This document shows positions 40,569-45,895 of a DNA stretch of 64,000 bases, piece after piece (the stretch's first letter is position 1; each line of letters starts with the position of its first letter). The translations under genes were made by a program, and so were the position numbers. The stretch is from an uncultured Ignavibacteriales bacterium. Lineage in GTDB: Bacteria > Zixibacteria > MSB-5A5 > GN15 > JAAZOE01. The notes under the pieces are model-generated. The model searched no databases. It saw only the letters and a list, made by a program, of their open reading frames with translations, and was not told the DNA's origin. Where the stretch lies: the NCBI GenBank assembly GCA_964549765.1, contig CAZJWR010000009.1:15442-79441 (forward strand), given 5' to 3'.

Positions 40569-41165
40569 ATGACGAGCAGCAGAGACAAAAGCATTAAGGC
40601 CTTGGTTACCGGCTGTCGAAAGGGCAATAAGCACGATTGGGCCGAACTCATCGACCGCATATCGCCAGCTATTTTTTCGGTATGCTATCGCTTCCGGCTG
40701 GCTCGCGAAGAGAGTTTCGATGTGTTCGGAAAAGTATCCCTTTTGGTTCTCGAAAACCTGGACAGGCTGAGGAACGAAAGCCGGATTTTTGGCTACGTGT
40801 CGACCATCGCCTATCACGAGGCGGCGGCGATGAAAGCGCGCTCCAAACTGGTAAACGAAGCTGAACGCGAGCACGCCGAACACCAAACCAACCTCGATTG
40901 GAGTTCAGCGGCGCAGGAAATGATCGAATTGGACCGAGAGTTGAAAACTCTCTCAGACGCCTTTTATGAATTGCCGACCCGCTGTCAGGAGCTGCTGCGT
41001 CTGCTTTTTTTTGAATCGGAATCGATGTCGTACCGGGATATATCCCGCCGGATGAAAATCCCGGTGTCGTCGATCGGGCCGACAAGAATGCGGTGCCTGA
41101 AGACATTGCGGCAGATCATGAAGGAAAAGGGGGAGAAGGATGAAAAAGATGTCACCGAAGTATAA
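40569..41165 (+). CDS. ECF-type sigma-70 family RNA polymerase sigma factor
   Basis: Region 2-like DWAELIDRISPAIFSVCYRF...FGYVSTIAYHEA. Region 4 HTH LPTRCQELLRLLFFESESMSYRDISRRMKIPVSSIGPTRMRCLKTLRQI. Start chosen at ATG 40569 within ORF 40395..41165. Confidence 0.8.
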   Translation: MTSSRDKSIKALVTGCRKGNKHDWAELIDRISPAIFSVCYRFRLAREESFDVFGKVSLLVLENLDRLRNESRIFGYVSTIAYHEAAAMKARSKLVNEAEREHAEHQTNLDWSSAAQEMIELDRELKTLSDAFYELPTRCQELLRLLFFESESMSYRDISRRMKIPVSSIGPTRMRCLKTLRQIMKEKGEKDEKDVTEV

Positions 41166-41724
41166 AACGGAAAAGCTCATGGCGCATACGAAAAGAAACA
41201 GTAGGAAGAATACGGATCGGAAGAAAATGGGCGCCACTGACAAACAGATGATGTCCGCCATGAACCGGGAACTTGACCGCATGTTCGAATATCTCGAAAC
41301 GGCCGGTGTCTCAGCCGATTCAAGGGTTCTGGCCGATGCCATCTTCGAAAATTTCCAGAAGGGCCGACGCCGACCGGATGGCCGGAATGCATATCTCTAT
41401 TACGACAGCCGGGCCATTCCCCTGCCGGCGGGCGTGAGGCCGTCGCTCATGTCGGAACGGCGGTTGAAATATTCCGCCGGTGATATCACTCTGGAAGTGT
41501 CGATTACGCCGGTCTTTCCGGGACGATTCGAAGTGACCGGGCGTTTTGAGGGCGTTGCTGGGAAAAGCGTCATAAAATCGCACCTTAAGGGACGACGGAC
41601 GCTTAGCGGGGAAACCGACGAGTTCGGTTTCTTTACCTTTTCCGCGGTTGATCCCGGAACCTATTCGCTATACTGTAAGGTGGGAGACGAAGAGGTCATT
41701 GTGCACGATCTCGAACTGCGATGA
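41140..41724 (+). CDS. Hypothetical soluble protein: Lys/Arg-rich N-terminus, beta-sandwich (carboxypeptidase-regulatory-like) C-terminus; candidate anti-sigma/protease substrate
   Basis: AAGGGGGAG SD before ATG 41140. 26-nt overlap with the sigma gene and an ATGA overlap with the CHAT gene. No TM helix and no HxxxCxxC anti-sigma motif. C-terminus FGFFTFSAVDPGTYSLYCKVGDEEVIVHDLEL. Confidence 0.5.
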   Translation: MKKMSPKYKTEKLMAHTKRNSRKNTDRKKMGATDKQMMSAMNRELDRMFEYLETAGVSADSRVLADAIFENFQKGRRRPDGRNAYLYYDSRAIPLPAGVRPSLMSERRLKYSAGDITLEVSITPVFPGRFEVTGRFEGVAGKSVIKSHLKGRRTLSGETDEFGFFTFSAVDPGTYSLYCKVGDEEVIVHDLELR

Positions 41725-44489: not shown

Positions 44490-44506
44490 TCGGGAGGAAC
44501 TGCACG

Positions 44507-45895
44507 ATGCGACTGACTCGGATATTGCTTCTCATGCTCATCATTCTGCCGGTATATGTGCAGGCAACCGATATATATGTCGACTCCCAAGTGGTATGCC
44601 GGGTCCGGCCTGGAGCCGATCCTGACACCGTGGCAGCGACGGTAGAAGCACTGGTGACCAACGGCATCGAATCCGCCGAGACGTACCTGTTCCAGTATCG
44701 GGTGCCCGCGCCGGTTGACTCGGTGATTCATCTTCTGATCGACAATCCGGATGTTATCGAGGCACACCCCAATTTCATCATACACATTAACCTGGACCAG
44801 GTCAGTCAGCCATTCGTCGACGGCGATCAGACCAACCAGGCCTTCGTCGACGGCATTTCTCCGGCGCATTATTTTGAACAATACGCCGAGGGCAACCTGC
44901 TCATGGATTCGGCGCATCTTATCAACCGGGGAGAAGGCGCCGTGATCGCTATAATCGACGGCGGGTGCGACAACACCAACCCGGTGTTCCAAAACCGGAT
45001 CGACGATGGCAGTTTCGATTTCGTTGATATCGATTATGAACCATGGGTAAATTCCGGCACGACCGGCAACCACGGCACCTTCGTCGCGGGCATCGCGGCC
45101 CGATGCGCTCCCGATGCTTCTCTGATGATCGTGCGCTGCTTCAGCGCCTCCGGGAGCGGTACCAGTTTCGATATCGCCCACGGTATCTATTATGCGGCCG
45201 AGCACGGCGCCGACATCATCAATATGAGCTTCGGAATGGATCGGTATAACTCGACGATAGCCGAAGCCATCGAAGCGGCATATTACCAATACGGGGTGGT
45301 GTTGACAGCCGCGGCCGGAAATTCCGGATTGGAGTTCGATCGTTTCCCCGCTTCGCATCCCTGCGTACTCAATGTGGCCGCAGTGGATTCCGCCGATATC
45401 AAAACCGATTTTTCCAATTATGGGTTCAGTGTCGCCGTGACCGCCCCCGGGGAGAATATCTATAGTTCGCTGGCCGGCGGCAACGTCTGGGGCTGGTGGA
45501 GCGGGACATCGTTCTCCGCTCCGTTTGTGTCCGGTTTGGCGGCGCTATTGAAATCGATGCATCCGGGCGACCCTCCGTACTCCATAATGGAGACAATGGT
45601 ACGGGCATCCGACAATATTGACGAAATCAATCCCGGCTATACGCTGCTGCTCGGGAGCGGTCGGGTTGATTTCCTGAAGACGATTTATCTACCCGGCGAC
45701 GCCAACGGAAGCGGTGGGGTTAATCTGGGAGACGTTGTTTATCTGGTGAACTACATCTTTAAGAGCGGTCCCGAGGCGTTGCCCCCGGAAAGCGGCGACG
45801 CCAATTGCGATGAAACGGTCAATATCGGCGACGCCGTGTTCCTGATCGATTATATTTTCCGGAGCGGAACGGAGCCGGTTCGTTGTGATTGGTGA
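44507..45895 (+). CDS. Secreted subtilisin-family (S8) peptidase with C-terminal dockerin
   Basis: GGGAGGA SD before ATG 44507. Signal peptide MRLTRILLLMLIILPVYVQA. Triad contexts AIIDGGCD (Asp), NHGTFVAGIAA (His) and SGTSFSAPFVSGLAALL (Ser). Dockerin at 45692-45892: GDANGSGGVNLGDVVYLVNYIF...SGDANCDETVNIGDAVFLIDYIF. Confidence 0.85.
   Translation: MRLTRILLLMLIILPVYVQATDIYVDSQVVCRVRPGADPDTVAATVEALVTNGIESAETYLFQYRVPAPVDSVIHLLIDNPDVIEAHPNFIIHINLDQVSQPFVDGDQTNQAFVDGISPAHYFEQYAEGNLLMDSAHLINRGEGAVIAIIDGGCDNTNPVFQNRIDDGSFDFVDIDYEPWVNSGTTGNHGTFVAGIAARCAPDASLMIVRCFSASGSGTSFDIAHGIYYAAEHGADIINMSFGMDRYNSTIAEAIEAAYYQYGVVLTAAAGNSGLEFDRFPASHPCVLNVAAVDSADIKTDFSNYGFSVAVTAPGENIYSSLAGGNVWGWWSGTSFSAPFVSGLAALLKSMHPGDPPYSIMETMVRASDNIDEINPGYTLLLGSGRVDFLKTIYLPGDANGSGGVNLGDVVYLVNYIFKSGPEALPPESGDANCDETVNIGDAVFLIDYIFRSGTEPVRCDW

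Follow-up and report, generated by a model that had tools for sequence, protein, structure and literature searches.

A candidate protease-gated extracytoplasmic function sigma factor switch outside CRISPR loci: neighboring genes for a sigma factor, an anti-sigma-like protein and a CHAT protease in an uncultured Zixibacterium

Introduction

To our knowledge, bacterial proteins that join a tetratricopeptide repeat (TPR) array to a CHAT domain are abundant, and very few of them have a known substrate, namely Csx29, DdvA (for which a substrate is proposed) and SAVED-CHAT. The DdvS/DdvA system of Myxococcus xanthus consists of a sigma factor of the extracytoplasmic function (ECF) type and a zinc-binding anti-sigma (ZAS) domain that is fused via a transmembrane (TM) helix to a periplasmic TPR-CHAT protein (PMC11506125; PDB 8ROT/8RW5/8RLZ); cleavage of the anti-sigma by the CHAT domain is the proposed, not yet proven, activating step, and DdvA-like fusions have been reported in several Myxococcota species and in one Comamonas species (PMC11506125). 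Type III-E CRISPR loci encode Craspase, in which Cas7-11/gRAMP occurs with Csx29, Csx30, Csx31 and CASP-sigma, and cleavage of Csx30 by Csx29 frees CASP-sigma (PMC10028731). In a type III-B system, the SAVED-Lon protease CalpL cuts the soluble anti-sigma factor CalpT and the ECF sigma factor CalpS is freed (summarized in 10.1101/2023.06.23.546230). Here we describe an operon in a 64-kb stretch of DNA from an uncultured Ignavibacteriales bacterium (GTDB lineage Zixibacteria; contig CAZJWR010000009.1), the whole of which is called the window below, that encodes in order an ECF sigma factor, a small anti-sigma-like protein, a TPR-CHAT protease and a secreted S8 protease; we put the probability at roughly 0.55 that in this module an ECF sigma switch is gated by a protease, independently of CRISPR and entirely in the cytoplasm.

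By composition, DdvS/DdvA is the closest characterized system, and it supplies a precedent for the combination of an ECF sigma factor with a TPR-CHAT protein (PMC11506125) that was overlooked when a first-pass annotation of this DNA stated that no characterized system of such composition was known. In both cases an ECF sigma factor is encoded beside a ZAS-type or, in the window, probably ZAS-derived anti-sigma domain and a TPR-CHAT protein with a His/Cys dyad. The window differs in that its anti-sigma-like and TPR-CHAT proteins are separate open reading frames (ORFs) joined by an ATGA overlap, whereas DdvA is a single polypeptide; in that its anti-sigma-like and TPR-CHAT proteins have no TM helix and are predicted to be cytoplasmic, with a beta-sandwich in the anti-sigma replacing the membrane span; in that no RseP-type step is implied; and in that its regulon apparently comprises secreted or surface proteins, not cyclic-oligonucleotide-based antiphage signaling (CBASS) or CRISPR systems. 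Craspase shares with the window a cytoplasmic TPR-CHAT protease encoded with an ECF sigma factor and a soluble protein that inhibits sigma (in the window, putatively), and the proposed logic of cutting an inhibitor to free a sigma factor; Csx29 is also the best Foldseek match of the window CHAT model. In contrast to Craspase, the window locus has no Cas7-11, CRISPR RNA or CRISPR array, so its activator cannot be a target RNA, and it has no Csx31; its putative inhibitor is ZAS-derived, carries a beta-sandwich and is unrelated to Csx30, and its TPR array is longer (about 575 aa).

For CalpL/CalpT/CalpS, the likeness lies in a three-component cytoplasmic set of protease, soluble anti-sigma and ECF sigma encoded together, and the difference in a Lon rather than a caspase/CHAT fold, a cyclic oligoadenylate input through SAVED and an association with CRISPR. 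Class I (ZAS) pairs, for example RsrA-SigR and the RseA/DegS/RseP cascade, are comparable in that an N-terminal anti-sigma domain (ASD) sequesters, or in the window would sequester, a two-domain ECF sigma factor encoded immediately upstream, with autoregulation likely; the window-type anti-sigma differs from them in being soluble, in having mostly lost the zinc ligands, in carrying a transthyretin-like beta-sandwich and in being invariably paired with a dedicated cytoplasmic caspase-fold protease. In the literature on ECF sigma factors and CHAT proteins outside CRISPR and DdvA, we found no description of a free-standing sigma/anti-sigma/TPR-CHAT module; CHAT is likewise absent from the main text of the ECF re-classification paper. 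The module is probably an undescribed protease-operated gene switch.

Gene content and conservation of the module

The four co-directional ORFs occupy positions 40569-45895 of the window (Table 1), and the arrangement described by the first-pass annotation, with a 26-nt overlap, an ATGA overlap and a 17-nt gap, was recovered with its coordinates exact. The 194-aa ORF overlaps the sigma gene by 26 nt and is preceded by a strong Shine-Dalgarno-like GGGGGAGAAGG; independent gene callers place its start 9 nt (three codons) later, which gives a protein of 191 aa. Its stop and the start of the CHAT gene form an ATGA-type overlap, and the S8 start comes after a 17-nt gap and a GGGAGG ribosome-binding site. 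Residues 23-183 of the 198-aa product of the first gene match the sigma70-ECF model of NCBIfam (TIGR02937) with 58.5 bits, above its cut-off of 42.9, and on this match the product is an ECF (group IV) sigma-70 factor, as had been supposed; the individual Pfam models for regions 2 and 4 stay below their cut-offs for the window protein and likewise for its orthologues.

The gene set recurs as a conserved unit. Each of the 18 distinct related loci has the TPR-CHAT gene, or the 5' part of that gene at a contig end, next after the small gene, and an ECF sigma gene precedes the small gene wherever the contig extends that far; in 12 loci the sigma gene and the small gene are accompanied by a complete TPR-CHAT gene (918-959 aa). 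This synteny, whose loss would by the first-pass annotation have refuted its proposal, is kept from 79% down to about 23% CHAT identity, and the identities of the sigma, anti-sigma, CHAT and S8 proteins fall in parallel, from about 70% to about 31%. The source labels of the loci are candidate division Zixibacteria or Zixiibacteriota, FCB group, an 'Ignavibacteriales' metagenome-assembled genome, Chloroflexaceae and Pyrinomonadaceae, which places the module, by label, in three phyla (Zixibacteria/FCB, Acidobacteriota and Chloroflexota). Chance adjacency of the genes is ruled out by the conserved order across these phyla. The 4-nt ATGA-type overlap between the anti-sigma and CHAT genes is present in 12 of the 17 loci compared, window included, and suggests coupled translation and a stoichiometric complex. 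The fourth gene always encodes a secreted protein, an S8 subtilase in the Zixibacteria-type and Acidobacteria-type loci and a BNR protein in the Chloroflexota type.

Neither a TM-grade hydrophobic segment nor a signal peptide was found in the sigma factor, the 194-aa protein or the TPR-CHAT protein, whose maximum Kyte-Doolittle values (KD19) are 0.82, 0.66 and 1.25, respectively; all three are therefore expected in the same compartment.

Two loci from one sample (L019 and L027, both SRR9710561) hold the window's module plus a second module that is only 31-36% identical to it, with a sigma factor of 192 aa, a small protein of 196 aa, a CHAT protein of 920 aa and an S8 protease; it is either a paralogous copy in one genome or belongs to a second Zixibacterium. 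Some non-Zixibacteria loci have conflict-type neighbors, namely TIR_2 and MAP3K_TRAF_bd/TPR-S genes (L025 1-2143) and a PIN/AF2212-like pair (L023 5384-6234), and this association is inconsistent across loci.

Relationship of the small protein to anti-sigma factors

The 194-aa protein was first described as soluble, with a Lys/Arg-rich N-terminus and a beta-sandwich C-terminus, and this description agrees with the hydrophobicity scan, with the 13 lysine or arginine residues among its first 35 and with an AlphaFold2 (AF2) model of predicted local distance difference test score (pLDDT) 71.7, which consists of a long helix (residues 32-76), a linker and a confident CarboxypepD_reg-like beta-sandwich (107-193). 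A word-seeded search with this protein returned only 23 close clusters, and a profile search of 1.84 billion representatives returned 217 matches at E <= 1e-10. About 95 of the best 150 profile matches are full-length proteins of about 167-201 aa, and the rest are giant proteins with nothing but the CarboxypepD_reg repeat in common with them. The family hidden Markov model (HMM) matches 132 retrieved members, a lower bound on the size of this large, length-constrained and unannotated family of proteins of about 196 aa.

Distant members of this family have the classic anti-sigma N-terminal pattern LL..YL.GEL...E...VE..L..D. A subfamily of 235-240 aa, which also has CarboxypepD_reg, passes the Pfam gathering score of zf-HC2 (PF13490) at 23.8-28 bits against 22.2, and one of its members is labeled 'anti-sigma factor RsiW' by the Joint Genome Institute (JGI). 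Alignment of the ~196-aa and 235-240-aa subfamilies with hhalign gives a probability of 98.3% and E = 2e-14 over 171 columns that include the N-terminal domain. Moreover, the orthologues in L025 and L026 carry the H-x3-C-x2-C motifs HLSSCSVC and HLDECERC and match the family HMM over its full length at 1e-14 and 3e-16. Because distant family members carry a bona fide zf-HC2/ZAS anti-sigma domain, the 194-aa protein appears to be a degenerate soluble anti-sigma factor with a C-terminal beta-sandwich, from a family that descends from ZAS/zf-HC2 domains; the link is firm at the level of the family. Its homology to anti-sigma factors fits the sequestering role that the first-pass annotation had proposed for it, and the accompanying remark that it lacks a classical anti-sigma motif holds for the window copy and not for the family, in whose distant members ZAS/zf-HC2 is found.

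A 35-sequence alignment reveals that 8 of 13 invariant or nearly invariant columns fall in residues 89-108 (DS..P...G.RP.....RR), and pLDDT dips at residues 100-102 within this conserved linker. It is unusual for a mere spacer of about 20 residues to be the most conserved part of a protein, and residues 89-109 are a candidate CHAT docking or cleavage site. A profile search of the PDB with the family found no Csx30 or Csx31 at E <= 10 and no anti-sigma, with one non-significant touch (E = 0.55) on the N-terminal domain of DdvA; PADLOC made no defense-system assignment for the sigma factor or the small protein and gave only weak TPR/BovA/subtilase matches for the other proteins.

The Chloroflexota-type anti-sigma proteins (235-240 aa; L007 9659-10378) contain two tandem ASD-like N-terminal segments, EGDLLAYLEG... 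and DDLLLYQAGLL..., of which only the second aligns with the ~196-aa family. An acidic extension (EKGEKDEKDVTEV), which most orthologues lack, forms the end of the window sigma factor; speculatively, this tail and the unusually basic N-terminus of the anti-sigma-like protein may form a compensating electrostatic contact in the window subclade.

The TPR-CHAT protease

The third gene product matches Pfam CHAT (PF12770) at E = 1.9e-43 (149 bits against a cut-off of 24) and TPR_12 at E = 2.4e-31. Its CHAT domain contains the motifs HLAAHAS (H793/H797) and LSGCQTG (C837), with the dyad H797 encoded at 44109-44111 and C837 at 44229-44231; no exception to H793, H797 and C837 occurs among 11 orthologues or among 25 that reach down to 23% identity, which bears out the earlier reading of a retained caspase-type His/Cys pair and speaks against the refuting case, named in the first-pass annotation, of a dyad that is not conserved. 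The AF2 model (pLDDT 85.7, predicted TM-score (pTM) 0.82) consists of about 25 paired helices that extend to approximately residue 575 and are followed by a caspase-like alpha/beta domain. The best full-length Foldseek matches of this model in the PDB are Csx29 (8eey_B, E = 3e-16), human separase (2e-14) and DdvA (8rot_A, 6e-12), all at 11-15% identity (Csx29 at 12-14%).

At the level of sequence, the profile of the protein finds Csx29-type chains at about 1e-11 and DdvA (8rot_B) at 1e-8, via the CHAT domain only; phmmer against Csx29 chains gives E = 0.008-0.12, and the Csx29 model of NCBIfam (NF041237) scores 22.3 bits against a cut-off of 300, with only the CHAT part aligned. The 922-aa protein thus has a TPR-CHAT/separase architecture and is not a Csx29 orthologue, lying about equally far from Csx29, separase and DdvA. 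The description 'Craspase-like' given to the locus in the first-pass annotation is therefore apt as an analogy of fold and logic and fails as a statement of orthology, given this score and a second gene unrelated to Csx30 or Csx31.

Secreted products and candidate promoters

The S8 gene had been read as coding for a secreted protease with a dockerin, and it indeed matches Peptidase_S8 (E = 1.7e-38) and Dockerin_1 (E = 2e-6, 28.3 bits against 22.9), with the D/H/S motifs intact (IIDGG, HGTFVAG, GTSFSAP) and with a signal-like hydrophobic N-terminus followed by a pro-region. A two-copy 30-nt tandem repeat (77% identical) at 44795-44854 lies in this pro-region and encodes DQVSQPFVDG / DQTNQAFVDG. 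The divergent 1690-aa protein encoded on the other side of the operon contains twelve FG-GAP repeats and ASPIC/UnbV, BACON, cohesin and dockerin domains, and ends in a type IX secretion system (T9SS) C-terminal sorting domain. A cohesin gene of 63-70% identity divergently adjoins the operon in L001, L002/L005, L004, L009, L010, L011 and L027, and the divergent cohesin protein probably belongs to the regulon and would be the scaffold on which the dockerin-bearing S8 protease docks.

When the divergent spacers of seven loci are aligned, two blocks stand out as conserved, and both have the form TGTAT-N18-CTC. One is TGTATTTTTC-N-CTC on the minus strand, 66 nt upstream of the start codon of the cohesin gene, and the other is TGTATCAAAAC-N-CTC on the plus strand, 90 nt 5' of the sigma start. 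The pattern occurs five times in the 64 kb against 1.24 expected, and two of these matches lie in the 372-bp divergent spacer, one per strand and each directed toward its gene. The minus-strand motif is kept with exact spacing and a variable spacer sequence in seven out of seven distinct close relatives (L001, L002, L004, L009, L010, L011, L013); the plus-strand motif is kept in six of the seven, with a one-mismatch version in L001, and is also present in the short contig L003/L012, a fragment identical to L002. We read the two spacer motifs as a probable phylogenetic footprint of co-regulation and as a candidate ECF-dependent pair, whose dependence on the sigma factor we infer; the plus-strand motif would then be a candidate autoregulated ECF promoter. 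A shared promoter-like motif of the operon and the cohesin gene also fits the output suggested in the first-pass annotation. A generic sigma-70 promoter and terminator scan gave matches at chance level and was uninformative.

Proposed mechanism and alternatives

We propose that the 194-aa protein would serve as a soluble anti-sigma factor whose ZAS/zf-HC2-derived N-terminal half keeps the ECF sigma factor inactive, and that its beta-sandwich and invariant linker (DS..LPLP.GVRP....RRL) would hold it on the TPR array of the TPR-CHAT protease that is translated together with it. An intracellular cue sensed by the TPR-CHAT protein would switch on the His/Cys dyad, upon which the protease would cut the anti-sigma, most likely in or beside the invariant linker, before the beta-sandwich. 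The sigma-binding fragment would thereby be destabilized and the sigma factor freed; it would then transcribe its own operon, including the secreted S8/dockerin protease, and in the window clade it would also transcribe the divergent FG-GAP/cohesin surface scaffold, a possible dock for the S8 protease.

Several observations weigh against this scheme. The ASD-homologous N-terminus of the window copy is degenerate, Lys/Arg-rich and predicted to be disordered (pLDDT <40), and no zf-HC2 match is found in the window 194-aa protein even at E <= 1; that the window copy binds sigma is therefore less certain than that the family does. H-x3-C-x2-C is retained in only 3 of the 132 members retrieved, and a Foldseek search with the small-protein model returned no significant match, none below 1e-3 and only insignificant immunoglobulin-like ones. 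As to the output, the fourth gene is BNR and not S8 in Chloroflexota, which makes S8 a frequent output rather than an invariant part of the core. The promoter-like motif is short (8 fixed bases), its three further matches in the window are probably chance, and it was not found upstream of the sigma gene in the distant loci L016-L025, so that it is either clade-specific or the specificity of the sigma factor has drifted.

The relation between the small protein and the protease could also be one of inhibition rather than cleavage. Securin is a stoichiometric inhibitor or chaperone of separase, and the small protein might likewise be both an anti-sigma factor and an uncut stoichiometric inhibitor or chaperone of the TPR-CHAT protein, moved by a signal between sigma and CHAT, with other cellular proteins as the CHAT substrates. 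Translational coupling and strict co-occurrence indicate only a physical or functional link and not cleavage, the CHAT model is as similar to separase as to Csx29, and the invariant linker could be a pseudosubstrate; however, the module encodes no other conserved candidate substrate, and where sigma-linked protease systems have been characterized, the cut falls on the anti-sigma-like protein (PMC10028731; for CalpL/CalpT, as summarized in 10.1101/2023.06.23.546230), and we consider such a partner switch unlikely. Conservation of the dyad is compatible with both models and decides neither. We rate as somewhat less likely still that the sigma factor and the small protein form an ordinary pair, controlled otherwise (for example by redox at the ZAS site or by general proteolysis), and that the TPR-CHAT and S8 proteins are regulon products, such as a stress, cell-death or defense effector and a secreted protease. 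ECF operons often contain their own target genes, the ZAS motif of some orthologues (L025/L026) could sense oxidants, and a defense role would accord with the conflict-type neighbors of a few non-Zixibacteria loci (TIR_2 in L025, PIN in L023) and with a weak PADLOC BovA match on the CHAT domain (E = 2e-4). Yet the zinc ligands are lost in most family members, so that redox sensing is not the general input; the flanks of the Zixibacteria-type loci are metabolic and secretory rather than defense islands; and the fourth gene varies whereas the TPR-CHAT gene never does and is ATGA-coupled to the anti-sigma gene, a pattern of a core signaling partner and not of cargo.

In type III-E loci, too, a TPR-CHAT protease occurs together with an ECF sigma factor (PMC10028731), and the genes might be an accessory set that has been displaced from a type III-E CRISPR (Craspase) system elsewhere in the genome. 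This is very improbable in view of the Csx29-model score given above, of a second gene without sequence or fold similarity to Csx30 or Csx31, and of the lack of a Csx31 equivalent or a fifth conserved gene. Furthermore, the module occurs in three phyla with no cas gene called in the flanks (up to 10 kb) of the related loci, no cas gene is present among ten large window ORFs checked, and the window contains neither tandem repeats nor spaced direct repeats consistent with a CRISPR array; the first-pass statement that no cas gene or CRISPR array lies in the 64 kb stands over this range.

If a protease-gated switch of the proposed kind is at work, caspase-like protease-gated sigma release would be a general regulatory design and not a CRISPR specialty, and at least 130 unannotated 'hypothetical' proteins of about 196 aa would gain a function. 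The wider reading, to which we give somewhat less than even odds, is that a widespread CRISPR-independent family of cytoplasmic separase/Craspase-fold proteases (Zixibacteria, Acidobacteriota, Chloroflexota) exerts direct control over ECF sigma factors through cleavage of a soluble anti-sigma dedicated to this role (ASD plus beta-sandwich). The Csx29-CASP-sigma link of type III-E systems and the fused DdvA would both have in this family a free-standing counterpart and possibly their evolutionary source, and secreted enzymes would be the output, here an S8 protease docking on a T9SS surface scaffold with a cohesin. The three-protein system is self-contained, as a protease, a candidate substrate and a sigma read-out with two candidate promoters are encoded together, and experiments in vitro and in E. 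coli can directly test what activates a stand-alone TPR-CHAT protease of bacteria and what it cuts. The module also suggests that uncultured Zixibacteria deploy a cohesin-dockerin protease assembly in a regulated manner.

Genomic context

Table 1. Features of the module and of its divergent neighbor in the window, with the basis of each assignment.
Feature	Position	Strand	Basis
ECF (group IV) sigma factor, 198 aa	40569..41165	+	TIGR02937 match; orthologues directly 5' of the small gene
Soluble anti-sigma-like protein, 194 aa	41140..41724	+	AF2 model, family HMM, hhalign to zf-HC2 subfamily
Conserved linker, residues 89-109 of the anti-sigma-like protein (DSRAIPLPAGVRPSLMSERRL)	41404..41466	+	35-sequence alignment
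TPR-CHAT protease (predicted cytoplasmic), 922 aa	41721..44489	+	Pfam, AF2 model, Foldseek, invariant dyad
Secreted S8 subtilase with C-terminal type I dockerin	44507..45895	+	Pfam and translation
Divergent secreted surface protein, 1690 aa	35124..40196	-	Pfam domains; divergent conservation in relatives
Promoter-like motif TGTAT-N18-CTC toward the FG-GAP/cohesin gene	40262..40287	-	Pattern search and conserved spacing
Promoter-like motif TGTAT-N18-CTC toward the sigma gene	40479..40504	+	Pattern search and conservation

Directly 3' of the operon lie genes for an ArsR-like regulator (46510-46845) and a small TusA-like protein bearing the motif CPGP (46933-47187), and farther downstream those for two large HdrA-like Fe-S/FAD oxidoreductases (47701-50478 and 50475-52199). 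In L001, L002 and L004 the position 3' of the operon is taken by MTTB/corrinoid methyltransferase genes instead of the ArsR/TusA/Hdr-like genes of the window; since these downstream neighbors differ, the operon boundary is the S8 gene.

The ten other large ORFs of the window encode glycosidases, a second S8 protease, a TonB receptor, an ABC ATPase, a histidine kinase, an Hdr-like protein and a DegP-like protease. The second S8 protease (19539-23366, plus strand) is secreted and has four PKD domains and a FlgD_ig tail, and the minus-strand gene at 30027-33053 encodes a further protein in which a FlgD_ig domain is combined with a T9SS sorting tail. With a GH38 gene at 3271-7251 and a GH15 gene at 14101-16518, the region is rich in secreted degradative enzymes.

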